Shown piece after piece: positions 3 to 55,615 of a stretch of 55,615 nt of DNA (within the stretch, counting starts at the first letter, position 1; the number at the start of each line of letters is the position of its first letter). The notes below the pieces were generated by a model that worked only from the letters and a program-made list of their open reading frames with translations, did not search any database and had not been told where the DNA came from. The position numbers and the translations under genes are program-made. This DNA comes from Methanobacteriota archaeon (lineage in GTDB: Archaea; Undinarchaeota; Undinarchaeia; Undinarchaeales; Undinarchaeaceae). The DNA lies in the NCBI GenBank assembly GCA_002687935.1, contig NZBN01000010.1, positions 1 through 55,615 of the forward strand, written 5' to 3'.

Positions 3-107
3 GGAAGTAAGAAGCCGGCAAAGGAACCTGAAGCACCCGCTGAAGAAAAAGCAGAAGAAAAACCTGCAGAACCTGAAGCACCCGCTGAAGAGGAAAAATC
101 TGAATAA
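3..107 (+). CDS. 3' end of a gene with an acidic/Pro-rich tail, probably ribosomal protein L7Ae (partial)
   Basis: Open frame [34 protein letters not shown] ends at TAA 105-107, overlapping the rps28e ATG (TAATG). The identity is inferred only from the conserved rpl7ae-rps28e-rpl24e-ndk order. Confidence 0.5.
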
Positions 108-2428: not shown

Positions 2429-2836
2429 TTATTTTGAAAGAACTATTTCTGTTTCTCTGCCAAATATAGAAGGAAGGCTTATAATAAAAGAACCCTCCCT
2501 TTGTCTGACAACAATGGGCTTTCCTTTCATAAGAGCTTCAATATTTATCTCGTAAACACCTGACTTTTTAACATTTATAGTCTCTATTCCAAACTTACTT
2601 TCACTTTTTTCTACTTTCTGCTCAGAAACTTCATCAGCTTTTTTTTCAAGAGGTGCTTCTGGAAGCTCTTTAATTTCCTCTATTTTTTCAGAAAGTTCTT
2701 CATAAATTTCCTCTGCTCTGTCCTCGTCTTCCTCACTTCTCACAAGTAAGAACATTCTTCCGCCGCAGGAGCATCCGCTGACAACAGGAACTTTATCTTC
2801 CTCAAATCTCTCCCCACATTTCAGGCACTTGTGCAT
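2429..2836 (-). CDS. oapC: Zn-ribbon protein, OapC/DUF2072 family
   Basis: MHKCLKCG...GCSCGGRMF N-terminus; IETINVKKSGVYEINIEAL...EGSFIISL C-terminus; third gene of an oapABC-like operon. Confidence 0.8.
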   Translation of the reverse strand: MHKCLKCGERFEEDKVPVVSGCSCGGRMFLLVRSEEDEDRAEEIYEELSEKIEEIKELPEAPLEKKADEVSEQKVEKSESKFGIETINVKKSGVYEINIEALMKGKPIVVRQREGSFIISLPSIFGRETEIVLSK

Positions 2837-2838
2837 TA

Positions 2839-3261
2839 TTATAACTCAGCTGACACATGGAATGCACCAAGGTCACGCTTTATATCACTTATTATTGTGG
2901 AAGGTCCTACTAATGTAACACCTGGGCTGGATATTTCTATACCGAAAAGTTTTGCGGTTCTCGCAAAAAATACACGTGCCTTTCCACCTTTTCTAGGGAG
3001 GCTACAGAATTCTATTCCACTGAATTCCTCGTTTATTCCTTCCATCGTTTCTGTAACTAAATGTGCCTCTTCATCGGGACTTAGGGCTTCATCTAAAATT
3101 ACAACGTGTCCAAGCTTTACCTTTTCTAATATGACATCTATCTTCTCATCTATTGTGTCGCCCTTCAATTTTGACATTGAAATGAAATCTATTTTCAGGC
3201 TCTTCTTTGAACTTTTTTTTGTTCTTCGTGTCTTGCTGGATTTTTTCCGTGCTTTTGCCAT
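2839..3261 (-). CDS. oapB: OapB/DUF2073 family protein with basic N-terminal tail
   Basis: KIDVILEKVKLGHVVILDEALSPDEEAHLVTETM...FSGIE...GVTLVGPS; lies between the GTPase and the Zn-ribbon gene. Confidence 0.8.
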   Translation of the reverse strand: MAKARKKSSKTRRTKKSSKKSLKIDFISMSKLKGDTIDEKIDVILEKVKLGHVVILDEALSPDEEAHLVTETMEGINEEFSGIEFCSLPRKGGKARVFFARTAKLFGIEISSPGVTLVGPSTIISDIKRDLGAFHVSAEL

Positions 3262-3263
3262 AA

Positions 3264-4094
3264 TTAAACGTTCTCCGCTATTGTTTTATAAAGATTTTCA
3301 AGATTTCTTACCTCTTTTGCCGATATTGGAACAACCGGATGCTGCGGGAATGCACTCATTATATTATTTGGCTTAGAGCTTTTAGCATCTATTTTGTTTG
3401 CAGCTATAACTATTGGTATTTTCTTTGCTTCCAGATTTCCAAGAAGCATAATATTTACCTGAGTCATCGGATCCTTTGTAGAATCCATCATAACTATCAC
3501 TGAGTCAACATTGTCCAGCCATTTAATAGCTTCAACAATTCCCTTTGTTGCTTCTTCAGCTATTCTCTTCGCACTTACTTTTGTTATCTTCTTGCCCTTC
3601 TTTGAAGATACCTTTATCTTCAATTCTTTAATATGCGTCTGAAGTTTTTTCTTGCTTACTTTCGCCTCAAGTCTTTTTACAATTGTGGCCTTTTTCCCTG
3701 TTTTGGACAAATCTTCTTCTTCAGCTATTCTCTTCAAATCTGAAACTTTCAAATCCTTGAAATCAATATCTCCTCCTGTTGAGCTTTGCTTAAATTTTGT
3801 AAAATCTTTAAAATCGACCTGTGTTGAAAGCCCCGGCATATCAAGGAGGTTCATAACCAGGGTTTTGCTCCCTGCCTTCACTTCAATATGTTCAACCTTT
3901 TGAATCGTTCTTGTTTCGTGAGGCATTTCTGATACAGTTCCCACTTCTTTTCCTAACCAATCCATAGAAATCTTATTTGCAAGAGTAGTCTTTCCTGTAT
4001 TAGGCTCTCCATATATTCCAAGACGTATTACTCGTTTTCTTCCAAAAAGTCTTGAAAATGCGCCTCTTAGTTTCTTTATGAGTTTTCTTACCAT
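3264..4094 (-). CDS. oapA: Era-like GTP-binding protein OapA with internal SAP-like insertion
   Basis: G1 GEPNTGKTT, G2 PHETR, G3 DMPG, EATKGIVEAIKWL, DPMTQVN, G4 NKID. The ATG at 4094 is preferred over the TTG at 4112. Confidence 0.85.
   Translation of the reverse strand: MVRKLIKKLRGAFSRLFGRKRVIRLGIYGEPNTGKTTLANKISMDWLGKEVGTVSEMPHETRTIQKVEHIEVKAGSKTLVMNLLDMPGLSTQVDFKDFTKFKQSSTGGDIDFKDLKVSDLKRIAEEEDLSKTGKKATIVKRLEAKVSKKKLQTHIKELKIKVSSKKGKKITKVSAKRIAEEATKGIVEAIKWLDNVDSVIVMMDSTKDPMTQVNIMLLGNLEAKKIPIVIAANKIDAKSSKPNNIMSAFPQHPVVPISAKEVRNLENLYKTIAENV
3551..3735. repeat. perfect 20-bp direct repeat inside oapA, 165 bp apart (in frame)
   Basis: CTTCTTCAGCTATTCTCTTC at 3551-3570 and 3716-3735; both copies encode KRIAEE. 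Confidence 0.9.
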
Positions 4095-4143
4095 ACAACT
4101 CCCACATCCCAATATAACTGATGTTTATATTTAAACTATTTGT

Positions 4144-5544
4144 TTAGTAGACAATTTTTGGTCCGTATCCCCATAGTTTTACAGCCACGGCAAGCTCTGA
4201 TTCTGGGTTTAACTTTATCCATTCTCTAATTGGGATTCCTTCCATCGCTATTTTCCGGGATTGCTCAATTGCCTTTACTCCCGCTTCCACTCCATCAGGG
4301 TGTCCAAGGAGTCCCCCTCCACATTGTATCATTATATCCTCTCCCAGTGCGTTAATTACTGCTTCAAAGTCTCCGGGATGGAGACCTCCTGATGCAACCA
4401 TCCAAACTGGCTTGATGTGATGCCACTTCTGTCCCAGTGAAGGAATTTTGTCGTGTTCTTCAGTTTCATCGTCCTGAAGAATATGTCTGATATATTCGGC
4501 TTCTCCGTAATCCTCCATTTTTGCAAGCGGAGAGCCACCATGTAGAGAGTCGACTCCAAGAAGTCTGAACAACTTGGCAAGAACTATCATTGATATGGAA
4601 AATCCAAACAATCTTCCTTTTCCGTGAACTCCGGGTGAATTATCCCTTGTTATAAATCCGTGCATTGCCCTGTGAGCGTGTATCGCAAGTCCGGTATCTC
4701 TTCTCCGCATTGTGTCAACAGCCGCGAATCCAGTCGTTACCACGTCCATCATCATATAAATTCCACCGTTCTTCTTTATGGTTTCAGCCCGTTTCTCCAT
4801 TATGTCCAGGTTTGAATGAGTTATATTTGCAAGATAGAATTTCTTCTTTCCTGTTCTGAGTTCTGCATCTTTAAGTTTTGATAGAACCTTCCTAGTCCTG
4901 TCTTCGAATTTATTGAATTCAAGGCTTGTAAGGTTCTCATCATCCTTTATTCCTTCATATGTTCCCTTTCCTGATGTGAAAAGCTCCCAGGCAAGGTGAG
5001 CCTGTTCTCCGGAAGTTCTCCCTATCTTTGGTTTCGGAACAGTCGCTACAATCGGACCCTTGGGTTTCTTTAAAAGTTTTCTAATTCCCTGAACTCCATG
5101 CGTTGGTCCCAGAAATTCTGCTATCATTTTTCTTGGAAATCTCACATCATAAAAACGCATTGCTGAAACCATCTTCATTCCTGCTATGTTTCCTACAATT
5201 CCCGCAAGAAGTCCTGATATATTGTCTAATTCAAAAAGCTCAAGGGGGTATGCAACCTTAAACATGGACTTTTTGTAGTCCAGGTCATAGGCAAGCGCGC
5301 GTTTTTTTCTTGCGAGCGGAACTCCGGACTGTGGACCATCATAAACCTTTGTCCAGGTTCCTGTTGATGATTCAGCAGCAATAGATGCAGCTGCTTCTTC
5401 AAAAACAATTTTTTTCGTGCGGTTTCCAACCTCTTTAATTGCTTTTTCTGAAAGTTCAACCTTAAGAAGAGTTATGAGATAGTTTTCCTCGGCATTTTTT
5501 GGCTTCCAACCTTTTGGAGCCAGATAGTTGAATTGTACTGCCAT
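4144..5544 (-). CDS. rbcL: RuBisCO large subunit, archaeal form III-type
   Basis: AAESSTGTW, VPKPKIG, GIKDDENL (carbamylated Lys motif), HAHRAMHG, AKME, VASGGLHPG, QCGGG; catalytic set appears intact. Confidence 0.95.
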   Translation of the reverse strand: MAVQFNYLAPKGWKPKNAEENYLITLLKVELSEKAIKEVGNRTKKIVFEEAAASIAAESSTGTWTKVYDGPQSGVPLARKKRALAYDLDYKKSMFKVAYPLELFELDNISGLLAGIVGNIAGMKMVSAMRFYDVRFPRKMIAEFLGPTHGVQGIRKLLKKPKGPIVATVPKPKIGRTSGEQAHLAWELFTSGKGTYEGIKDDENLTSLEFNKFEDRTRKVLSKLKDAELRTGKKKFYLANITHSNLDIMEKRAETIKKNGGIYMMMDVVTTGFAAVDTMRRRDTGLAIHAHRAMHGFITRDNSPGVHGKGRLFGFSISMIVLAKLFRLLGVDSLHGGSPLAKMEDYGEAEYIRHILQDDETEEHDKIPSLGQKWHHIKPVWMVASGGLHPGDFEAVINALGEDIMIQCGGGLLGHPDGVEAGVKAIEQSRKIAMEGIPIREWIKLNPESELAVAVKLWGYGPKIVY

Positions 5545-16231: not shown

Positions 16232-16867
16232 ATGGCTAAAGAAAAAACTACCACTACAGAGAAAGACGAAGTTCTGACTATAGAAGGTAAGCGCAGAGAT
16301 ATTCTTGGAAAAAACAACATAGGCACTCTAATTATTACAGGTGACGCAGGAGAGTTTGTAGGCAGTGGAAACAAAGGCACAATCACAGTTATAGGCAAGG
16401 CAGGAAATGGTGTGGGCGATACAAACAAAGGCACAATCACAATTATAGGCAAGGCAGGAAATGGTGTGGGCGCTACAAACAAAGGCACAATCACAATTAT
16501 AGGCAAGGCAGGAAATGGTGTGGGCGCTACAAACAAAGGCACAATCACAGTTACAGGTGACGCAGGAAAGGATGTGGGCGATGGAAACGAAGGCACAATC
16601 ACAATTAACGGCAACGCAGGAAAGGATGTAGGCAATGGAAACGAAGGCACTCTAATTATTACAGGTGACGCAGGAGCTCATGCGGGCGAGAGCAACGAAG
16701 GCACAATCACAGTTAACGGCAACGCAGGAAAACGTGTTGGACATGATAACTACGGCACAATCACAGTTACAGGCACAATAGAAGAACTCCACAAATACGC
16801 TTCCGGCACAATCATAGCAGGAGATGTAACAGAAGACCACGGCATTCCTTGGACTAAAATAACTTAG
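16232..16867 (+). CDS. GXGXG/FwdC-GltB-C-like beta-helix repeat protein, paralog 1 (8 x 18-aa repeats)
   Basis: 30-aa N-cap, 8 repeats of GTIT(V/I)xG(D/N/K)AGxxVGxxN(K/E), 37-aa C-cap ending GTIIAGDVTEDHGIPWTKIT. Confidence 0.85.
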   Translation: MAKEKTTTTEKDEVLTIEGKRRDILGKNNIGTLIITGDAGEFVGSGNKGTITVIGKAGNGVGDTNKGTITIIGKAGNGVGATNKGTITIIGKAGNGVGATNKGTITVTGDAGKDVGDGNEGTITINGNAGKDVGNGNEGTLIITGDAGAHAGESNEGTITVNGNAGKRVGHDNYGTITVTGTIEELHKYASGTIIAGDVTEDHGIPWTKIT

Positions 16868-16909
16868 CCGAGAAATATTATTATATAACAATTCATCTTA
16901 TAGAATAAT

Positions 16910-17707
16910 ATGGCTGAAGAAAAAAATACCACTACCAAGAAAAAAGAAGTTCTTATTATTGAAGGTAAGGGCAGACGCAATCTTGGAAAAAACAACATAG
17001 GCACTCTAATTATTACAGGTGACGCAGGATATGTTGTGGGCGATACAAACAAAGGCACAATCACAATTATAGGCAACGCAGGAAATGGTGTGGGCGATAC
17101 AAACAAAGGCACAATCACAGTTACAGGCAACGTAGACAAAACTGTGGGCTTTAAAAACAAAGGCATAATCACAGTTACAGGCAACGCAGGAGATTATGTG
17201 GGCATTAGAAACAAAGGCACAATCACAGTTAACGGCAACGCAGGAGATAAGCCTGGGGAAGATAATAAAAGCACAATCATAGTCAAAGGCAACGCAGGAA
17301 ATGGTGTGGGCTTTAAAAACAAAGGCACAATCATAGTCTTTGGCAACACAGGAGATAAGGTGGGCGAGAGCAACGAAGGCACAATCACAATTATAGGCAA
17401 GGCAGGAGATAGTGTGGGCTTTAAAAACAAAGGCATAATCACAGTTAACGGCAAGGCAGGAGAGTTTGTAGGCAATGGAAACAAAGGCACAATCACAGTT
17501 ACAGGTGACGCAGGAGATTATGTGGGCGATGGAAACAAAGGCACAATCACAGTTAACGGCAAGGCAGGAGATTATGTGGGCTGGGGAAACGAAGGCACAA
17601 TCACAGTTACAGGCACAATAAAATCACTTGATAGAAAGGCTTCCGGCACAATCATAGCAGGAGATGTAACGGAAGACCACGGCATTCCTTGGACTAAAAT
17701 AACTTAG
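16910..17707 (+). CDS. GXGXG/FwdC-GltB-C-like beta-helix repeat protein, paralog 2 (11 x 18-aa repeats)
   Basis: Same N-cap and C-cap as paralog 1, with 11 repeats. Confidence 0.85.
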   Translation: MAEEKNTTTKKKEVLIIEGKGRRNLGKNNIGTLIITGDAGYVVGDTNKGTITIIGNAGNGVGDTNKGTITVTGNVDKTVGFKNKGIITVTGNAGDYVGIRNKGTITVNGNAGDKPGEDNKSTIIVKGNAGNGVGFKNKGTIIVFGNTGDKVGESNEGTITIIGKAGDSVGFKNKGIITVNGKAGEFVGNGNKGTITVTGDAGDYVGDGNKGTITVNGKAGDYVGWGNEGTITVTGTIKSLDRKASGTIIAGDVTEDHGIPWTKIT

Positions 17708-54604: not shown

Positions 54605-55615
54605 TGAGGGAAGGTGATATTCCTCAACAGAAGGTAGACCTAGTCAATGAGCTTGTCAATCTGATTAATGAAAATTCAGTTGTCGCTGTTGTAGATATTT
54701 TAAATTTGCCTTCAAAACAGTTTTTGCAGATGAAGCACGCACTTCGCGGAAAAGCTGTAGTGAGGATGGCAAGGAAGAGTGCTCTTCTACGTGCTCTTGA
54801 ACAGACAGATAGTAAGGGTCTTGTTGAGTATTTGAAAGGAATGCCAGCTATTCTAGTCTCTTCAGAAAATCCCTTCATGCTTTCAAAAATTCTAAAAAGT
54901 AGTAAGGCAACCGCCCCTGCAAAAGAGGGCACAACATTGAACAAGGATATAGTAATTCCGGCTGGCGAAACTTCATTTGCACCTGGTCCTGTCGTCGGCG
55001 AAATGCAAATGATGGGTGTCAAAGCAGCAATAGAAGGTGGAAAAGTTGTTGTAAAGGAAGATTCAGTTCTCGCAAAAGAAGGGGAAGTTGTTGATAAGAA
55101 AAAAGCAGACCTCATGGCGAAACTAGGTCTTGAGCCAATAGAGATTGGTCTTGATATGGTGGCCGCTTACGAAAATGGATTAATTTTCACTTCAGATGTT
55201 CTTAACATTGATACAGAGGAAACTCTTTCTCAGCTTGCTATCGCATCTGCAAATGCATTTGGTCTTGCGTACAGTATCAAGTATCCAACAAGTGATAACA
55301 TTGAAATGTTCATAAAAGAGGCATTCGTGCAGGCAAAGGGTCTTGCTATGGAGGTAGACTATATGTGCAGTGCGACCGCCGAGGACCTGTTGAAGAAGGG
55401 TGTCCGGGAAGCATCTGCTCTTGAGAGCAAGCTTCCAGCGGCTCCAGCTGAAGAAAAACCTAAAGAAGAAGCTCCTCCTGTAGAAAAACCAGAAGAAGCT
55501 CCAGAAGAAAAGGCTGAAGAAACTAAAGAAGAAGCTCCTCCTGTAGAAAAACCAGAAGAAGCTCCAGAAGAAAAGGCTGAAGAAACTAAAGAAGAAGCTC
55601 CTCCTGTAGAAAAAC
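54604..55615 (+). CDS. rpl10: 50S ribosomal protein L10/P0 (runs off the window end)
   Basis: Manual translation MREGDIPQQKVDLVNEL...LPSKQFLQM...PAGETSFAPGPVVGE...; no stop before 55615. Confidence 0.93.
   Translation, partial: MREGDIPQQKVDLVNELVNLINENSVVAVVDILNLPSKQFLQMKHALRGKAVVRMARKSALLRALEQTDSKGLVEYLKGMPAILVSSENPFMLSKILKSSKATAPAKEGTTLNKDIVIPAGETSFAPGPVVGEMQMMGVKAAIEGGKVVVKEDSVLAKEGEVVDKKKADLMAKLGLEPIEIGLDMVAAYENGLIFTSDVLNIDTEETLSQLAIASANAFGLAYSIKYPTSDNIEMFIKEAFVQAKGLAMEVDYMCSATAEDLLKKGVREASALESKLPAAPAEEKPKEEAPPVEKPEEAPEEKAEETKEEAPPVEKPEEAPEEKAEETKEEAPPVEK
55462..55615 (+). repeat. perfect 63-bp tandem repeat (KEEAPPVEKPEEAPEEKAEET) in the rpl10 tail
   Basis: Identical units at 55462-55524 and 55525-55587, plus a partial unit from 55588. 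Confidence 0.92.

Follow-up and report, generated by a model that had tools for sequence, protein, structure and literature searches.

The gene at positions 3264-4094 on the minus strand of contig NZBN01000010.1, from an Undinarchaeota assembly (GCA_002687935.1; 667 kb, 41% GC, 87% complete), encodes a small GTPase with a lysine-rich insertion behind its G3 motif, and an exact 20-bp repeat occurs twice inside the same gene. This raises two questions: whether the insertion is a cassette that recombination between the repeats could remove or a permanent part of the protein, and what such an insertion might bind. We addressed both using the whole contig, a stretch of 55,615 nucleotides that we refer to as the window, together with related genes from other genomes.

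The arvABC locus and its GTPase

Three closely packed genes occupy positions 2429-4094 of the minus strand, the GTPase gene followed by those for OapB and OapC, in the same order as in the HVO_3014 operon of Haloferax volcanii (ArvA/B/C; PMC10927574).

3264..4094, minus strand: arvA/oapA, 276 aa, stop codon included; small GTPase with insert; Pfam MMR_HSR1 and GTP_EFTU
2839..3261, minus strand: arvB/oapB, 140 aa; PF09846 at 3.6e-19
2429..2836, minus strand: arvC/oapC, 135-aa Zn-ribbon protein; PF09845 at 1.1e-21

An earlier note on this DNA had recognized an OapA-type GTPase in an oapABC cluster, and the profile searches agree. The GTPase matches MMR_HSR1 at 4e-11 and GTP_EFTU at 8e-10, and the OapB and OapC matches, in the genes that directly follow arvA on the same strand, both exceed the curated Pfam cut-offs; NCBIfam holds no specific model for ArvA, ArvB, or ArvC. 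In local alignments, the protein is 43-66% identical to Era-like GTP-binding proteins of about 207 aa from other DPANN archaea, and its closest homologs bear the database names Candidatus Undinarchaeota and Naiadarchaeales. Judged from these neighbors and this homology, the window GTPase is a member of the ArvA/OapA family. We take the ATG at 4094 as its start because the orthologs begin MV(R/K)K; the TTG at 4112, which opens the longest ORF, is a wrong start.

The features of the G domain and of the N terminus are as follows.

3987..4010, minus strand: G1/P-loop GEPNTGKT, residues 29-36; invariant columns G29, N32, G34, K35, and T36
3831..3842, minus strand: G3 DMPG, residues 85-88, followed by switch II; invariant D85, M86, P87, and G88
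3387..3398, minus strand: G4 NKID, residues 233-236; invariant N233, K234, and D236
4041..4088, minus strand: N-terminal amphipathic helix, residues 3-18; predicted, with low pLDDT

Together with G5 (SAK, residues 258-260), the G1, G3, and G4 motifs are intact, and their columns are invariant across 27-64 homologs. The full-length AF2 model, built with 64 aligned homologs, has a pLDDT of 82, and the best PDB folds for the whole model are Era, MnmE, and Rab7. The predicted helix at residues 3-18 has a hydrophobic moment of 0.62.

One substitution in the G domain deserves mention. Residue 262 (window 3309-3311), just after G5 in the context SAKE-G-RN, is valine here versus glycine in all 27 homologs of alignment A1, and the representative of the same-species protein cluster (P0001, on 17 contigs) also has glycine. 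Either the consensus is in error at this position, or a glycine that is otherwise invariant has been replaced in this assembly alone.

The function of the family, which the earlier note had called unresolved, was addressed in 2024, when OapA was shown to drive vesicle formation in H. volcanii (PMC10927574). Deletion of oapA abolishes RNA-carrying extracellular vesicles in this organism, and its overexpression leads to hypervesiculation (Mills et al., PNAS 2024, PMC10927574). The genes downstream of oapA also affect vesicle output in H. volcanii (PMC10927574). OapA contains an amphipathic helix at its N terminus, has homologs in seven DPANN phyla, and now bears the name ArvA, which stands for archaeal vesiculating GTPase (PMC10927574). 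That paper makes no mention of an insertion, a SAP domain, DNA binding, switch II, or the Undinarchaeota, and no description of a SAP insert in ArvA was found in the literature we searched.

The window protein resembles the family in being a small GTPase with G1-G5 and a predicted N-terminal amphipathic helix. Compared with H. volcanii ArvABC, however, the window ArvA adds a 72-aa insertion of SAP motif, helix, and polylysine stretch after switch II, the window ArvB has a polybasic N-terminal tail, and the cluster is not beside orc1/cdc6 in the assembly. The last of these differences bears on the suggestion of a nearby replication origin, which did not hold. The sole Cdc6_C match in the 87%-complete assembly lies mid-contig on a different contig (C6:33547-33822, as against C10 for the window), and within the window GC skew tracks gene strand only. 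Since the Orc1/Cdc6 match is on another contig, we rejected an origin linkage in the haloarchaeal oapABC sense, although a second orc gene may lie in the part of the genome missing from the assembly.

Directly upstream of arvA, window 4144-5544 (minus strand) encodes a homolog of the RuBisCO large subunit. It scores 400.9 bits versus the NCBIfam type III cut-off of 497 and is therefore a divergent form III or III-like enzyme.

A SAP-type motif inserted after G3

The insertion comprises a SAP motif, a third helix, and a lysine-rich linker.

3582..3797, minus strand: lineage-specific insert, residues 100-171, about 72 aa; found in every Undinarchaeota-type ortholog, missing from those of 207 aa
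3666..3764, minus strand: SAP motif, residues 111-143; helix 117-126, extended loop, helix 135-145; PF02037
3624..3653, minus strand: third insert helix, residues 148-157, with conserved ELxxLxKxLxIK; AF2 helix, with conserved L55 and L62 columns in profile A3
3579..3620, minus strand: Lys-rich linker, residues 159-172, KIKVSSKKGKKITK; K-rich columns conserved in all orthologs

The insert begins 12 residues past G3, after a short helix (95-98), ends where the long helix alpha-2 (172-195) starts, and takes the place of a short loop, G[LM]S.EE, in the 207-aa forms. By analogy with other Ras-like GTPases, the insertion point would be the junction of switch II and alpha-2. The insert contains 22 K/R versus 10 D/E, for a net charge of about +12, and the lysine-rich stretch that the earlier note had seen after the SAP motif recurs as K-rich columns in every ortholog.

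The SAP identity proposed in the earlier note was confirmed by a profile scan, in which residues 111-143 match Pfam SAP (PF02037) at 32.2 bits versus a cut-off of 23.9. Rho_N, HeH, and LEM gave no match in the window protein at E up to 0.1, and of these models SAP fits best by a clear margin. In a six-frame search, the motif scores 35 bits and is the sole SAP match in the genome, and 26 of the 64 aligned members have a SAP match at E up to 0.05. The motif follows the pattern common to SAP domains, L..(E/D)LK.IA...(L/I)...G.K...(I/L)..(R/K)L, and conserves the G-K-K turn typical of DNA-binding SAP motifs. Like the roughly 35 residues of known SAP domains (PF02037; SAF-A/B, Acinus, PIAS), it runs helix, extended loop, helix.

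The insert profile (A3), built from 13 genomes and searched against 1.8 billion representatives, finds, at 1e-15 to 1e-11, proteins in which Pfam recognizes as many as six SAP domains in tandem. The Rho_N, HeH, and LEM modules have the same helix-extended-helix architecture as the insert, and some of the best database matches to the insert profile score with Rho_N and HeH as well. To look for SAP inserts in other GTPases, 20 of the 150 best matches were scanned with Pfam, and the sole GTPase among them was an ArvA-type fragment (P0121); a known ortholog (P0005) is also among the 150, and the other one-stretch matches that were checked are unrelated SAP proteins. Against PDB sequences, the SAP domains of Hcc-1 and MANF come first, with weak E-values of 0.02-0.3.

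Structure prediction leads to the same fold. Over residues 110-150 of the full model, the AF2 pLDDT is 87-90, and the helices 117-126 and 135-145 are joined by an 8-residue connector. Because a Foldseek search with the whole protein returned GTPases only, the insert was folded alone (78 aa, pLDDT 75). With this model, two independent aligners rank SAP domains first or nearly so, and the predicted structure superposes on SAP domains of known structure, examples of the family being Hcc-1/SARNP (2do1), E1B-AP5 (1zrj), Tho1 (2wqg), Ku70 (1jjr), FAN1, and DEK. Foldseek lists Tho1, Hcc-1, 3′hExo, PIAS1, SF3B2, E1B-AP5, FAN1, and DEK, all at E > 1. For the FAN1 SAP, VIA-align gives Z 5.2, and for E1B-AP5 it gives Z 5.1 with an rmsd of 2.7 over 47 residues; Hcc-1 reaches Z 4.8, the Rho N-terminal domain (1a62) Z 3.4, and LEM Z 2.9-3.1. 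As Z is at most 5.5, the fold searches support SAP by ranking only; weak absolute statistics are expected, since only 40 residues are involved. What counts is that the fold ranking converges with the sequence evidence, and on profile matches and predicted structure taken together, the insert carries a genuine SAP-type motif. Two of these results nevertheless weigh against the nucleic acid reading set out below, namely the weak fold-search statistics of the 78-aa model (Foldseek E > 1, Z about 5) and the six-frame SAP scores across genomes, which pass the Pfam cut-off only within this genus.

Distribution of the insert and the 20-bp repeat

The earlier note had also regarded the insert as a lineage-specific acquisition, and its distribution bears this out. 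Sixteen other genomes of the phylum were searched, and in 13 of them a single continuous match spans the insert; in one further genome (G012), the ortholog is an N-terminal fragment that stops at the contig end before the insert, and two of the 16 gave no ArvA match. Archaea of other phyla show two separate matches flanking the insert, with the insert itself missing, and their OapA proteins, of about 207 aa, lack residues ~100-171. In a protein search, all 45 full-length insert-bearing homologs (45/45; 265-295 aa) outscore the ~207-aa forms from Altiarchaeota, Aenigmatarchaeota, and others. Used alone as the query, the insert matches the ArvA gene only, once per genome.

Comparisons within the genus put dN/dS at 0.04-0.06 in the SAP motif, 0.05-0.17 across the whole insert, and 0.03-0.05 in the G domain; dS is saturated for the window genome (G000) versus its congeners, and so the pair of congeners, G001 and G002, is the cleaner comparison. 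Presence across the phylum and low dN/dS together indicate that the insert is old, constitutive, and constrained. A single gain, at or close to the root of the phylum, would have been followed by retention under purifying selection.

These data also bear on the idea that the insert is a neutral, tolerated loop expansion without a function of its own. Growth of AT-rich, Lys-rich low-complexity sequence is common in reduced genomes, and in this genome, which has 41% GC, 30 of about 649 crude ORFs contain Lys-rich segments. Against this stand the confidently predicted three-helix fold, a dN/dS as low as that of the G domain, a hydrophobic pattern conserved across the phylum, and the significant SAP profile match, which together make a neutral expansion very unlikely.

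Two metagenomic ArvA proteins of the Undinarchaeota type, P0044 (231 aa) and P0047 (228 aa), both on short contigs, have neither the SAP motif nor helix 3 but retain a Lys-rich linker of 25-29 residues. In a G-domain tree (FastTree, midpoint rooting), they are nested in the insert-bearing clade and yet are not sisters, which suggests secondary losses.

In a genome from another family of the phylum (G014), the ArvA ortholog is a 690-aa ORF (L014:1477-3549, minus strand) whose P-loop is interrupted by an intein-like insertion of about 450 aa with the look of a LAGLIDADG-type endonuclease. The insertion ends ...VVHN, followed by TSLANRISLDW, and the extein retains the SAP insert.

The two copies of the 20-bp repeat are placed as follows.

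3716..3735, minus strand: 20-bp repeat copy 1; K121-E126, inside SAP helix 1
3551..3570, minus strand: 20-bp repeat copy 2; K176-E181, start of helix alpha-2

The earlier note had these coordinates and the 55-codon spacing right. The 55.6-kb window contains two exact copies of the repeat, CTTCTTCAGCTATTCTCTTC, spaced 165 bp apart, and no further copy was found there with two mismatches allowed; shuffling gave zero such repeats in 100 shuffles. On the coding (minus) strand, both copies read AAG AGA ATA GCT GAA GAA with a G on each side. In the congeners G001 and G002, which are 83% identical in nucleotides to the window genome, site 1 reads AAG AGG ATA GCT GAG GAA and site 2 reads AGG AAA ATA GCA GAG GAA, encoding ARKIAEE; the two sites differ at 4 of 19 positions there, and no repeat exceeds 11 bp. 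Among 10 more distant full-length orthologs, no comparable repeat between the two sites was found, and the one repeat longer than 11 bp, of 18 bp, lies upstream of the SAP motif (L004). The 20-bp repeat is thus found in the window genome only.

What is shared among the orthologs is the peptide. Both sites encode conserved K[KR]IAEE peptides, and the two are conserved for separate reasons: LK(K/R)IA is the SAP helix-1 consensus, and AK.IAEEATKG is the invariant start of alpha-2, for which the insert-less forms have A.EATKG. Given the shared hexapeptide, the probability of six identical codons is about 0.005 under the codon usage of the genome, so that pure chance is not a comfortable cause. Chance and a short intragenic conversion in this lineage are as plausible as each other as the origin of the repeat. 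A duplication of helix alpha-2 was considered as the source of the insert and set aside; the likeness does not extend beyond the K[KR]IAEE hexapeptide, itself in line with the general helix-1 consensus of SAP and Rho_N.

From the repeat, the earlier note had proposed that the SAP module is a switchable cassette, in which recombination between the copies removes 55 codons and leaves a nearly canonical OapA. In favor of this, the repeat is an exact one that lies in frame and would not be expected statistically, a deletion between the copies would preserve the reading frame, and isolated local repeats of at least 20 bp outside tandem-repeat genes number only about half a dozen in the 667-kb genome. 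However, the insert is under purifying selection across the phylum, and the repeat is absent from both congeners and from all other orthologs; that most orthologs carry the insert without the repeat counts directly against a switch. No 221-aa deletion allele was found among the proteins of about 15 billion sequences, and apart from one 75-aa fragment, the protein cluster of the species consists of 276-aa forms, which occur on 17 contigs. A metagenome scan returned relatives at no more than 66% identity and no same-species contig. Moreover, no recombinase gene adjoins arvA among its neighbors, the break points of the natural SAP-less forms P0044 and P0047 differ from those expected of the 20-bp repeat, and the product would be left with about 20 residues of the insert, while the conserved Lys-rich linker would be gone. 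We rejected the switchable cassette, which we regard as extremely improbable, on the grounds that relatives lack the repeat, that purifying selection acts on the insert, and that no deletion allele was found among database proteins; being private to one genome, the repeat also deprives the idea of importance. The 20-bp repeat is incidental and at most a weak, unselected deletion hotspot.

The window contains further repeats. Long, exact tandem repeats lie at both contig ends (window 55460-55615, 93 bp with a 63-bp period; window 24-91, 23 bp with a 45-bp period), encode Glu/Pro/Ala-rich low-complexity protein, and are the likely reason why the assembly breaks there. Dense exact repeats with 54- and 108-bp periods, up to 76 bp long, lie at window 16300-17550 inside two repeat-protein genes.

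The ArvB tail and possible ligands of the module

The basic tail that the earlier note had ascribed to OapB is real. Encoded at about 3196-3261 (minus strand), it is polybasic and N-terminal, and it recurs in all 12 orthologs of the order (those of L002-L012 among them), with a length of 15-40 residues, as many as 20 of the first 30 being K/R. Two other families of the phylum have a shorter tail, and three outgroup archaea have none. An N terminus as basic as this occurs in 8 of about 649 crude ORFs in the genome, of which about half look like ribosomal proteins. ArvB would have gained its tail in the same lineage in which ArvA carries the insert. With the two segments side by side, two subunits of one machine appear to have gained polycationic segments in the same lineage.

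Taking these results together, we favor, as on balance probable, a reading in which the ArvA of Undinarchaeota carries a constitutive SAP and polylysine insertion that binds a polyanion and ties nucleic acid to a membrane-remodeling GTPase. In this mechanism, the putative ligand of the module would most likely be DNA or RNA, which the module probably couples to the membrane-budding activity of ArvA. Because the module hangs from switch II, its binding of nucleic acid could depend on the nucleotide state of the GTPase. Some points weigh against this reading. SAP folds can mediate protein-protein contacts, as in the MANF-BiP complex, which is among the matches; a polybasic segment could bind acidic lipids rather than nucleic acid; and the role of ArvA in vesicle formation has been demonstrated for a haloarchaeon only. 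The repeat is awkward as well, given the uncomfortably low probability of six identical codons by chance and an unproven micro-conversion.

The first two of these points can be joined into an alternative, in which the insert and the ArvB tail form a membrane- or protein-docking device instead of a nucleic acid binder. The polybasic stretch would bind anionic archaeal lipids, as K-Ras-type anchors do, and the SAP motif would bind a partner protein, as the MANF SAP binds BiP. The charge of about +12 within 72 aa would suit such a device, ArvA acts at the membrane, and SAP-BiP complexes of MANF and CDNF are among both the sequence and the structure matches. In addition, P0044 and P0047 retain only the linker, so that the linker may be the essential part. 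On the other side, by sequence the motif is most closely related to classical multi-SAP, Rho_N, and HeH proteins, the conserved G-K-K turn is the one typical of DNA-binding SAP motifs, and ArvA already has its predicted N-terminal amphipathic helix for membrane binding. We consider a docking device possible but rather unlikely, and we retain nucleic acid binding by a constitutive insertion as the preferred reading.

Haloarchaeal vesicles carry RNA and plasmid DNA. To our knowledge, no prokaryotic small GTPase had been shown to drive vesicle budding before ArvA. In contrast to SAP domains that form a terminal module in nuclear proteins, the SAP of the window protein is an internal insertion in the G domain of a DPANN archaeon and, unlike known SAP domains, is followed by an extra helix and a polylysine linker; it is a rare case of a SAP motif inserted within a G domain, and in an archaeon. 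An ArvA variant with a built-in SAP motif beside its nucleotide switch would address how vesicle cargo is selected, and the SAP insert and the co-evolved basic tail of ArvB offer a direct, testable handle on cargo coupling. As a more speculative extension, which we hold to be doubtful, the ArvABC system of Undinarchaeota may have been rebuilt as a nucleic acid handler, in which the SAP motif at switch II and the ArvB tail would capture DNA or RNA in a GTP-state-dependent manner and load it into vesicles or membrane bridges. If true, these genome-reduced DPANN cells, which depend on hosts, would have a dedicated path by which to exchange nucleic acids with their hosts or kin.
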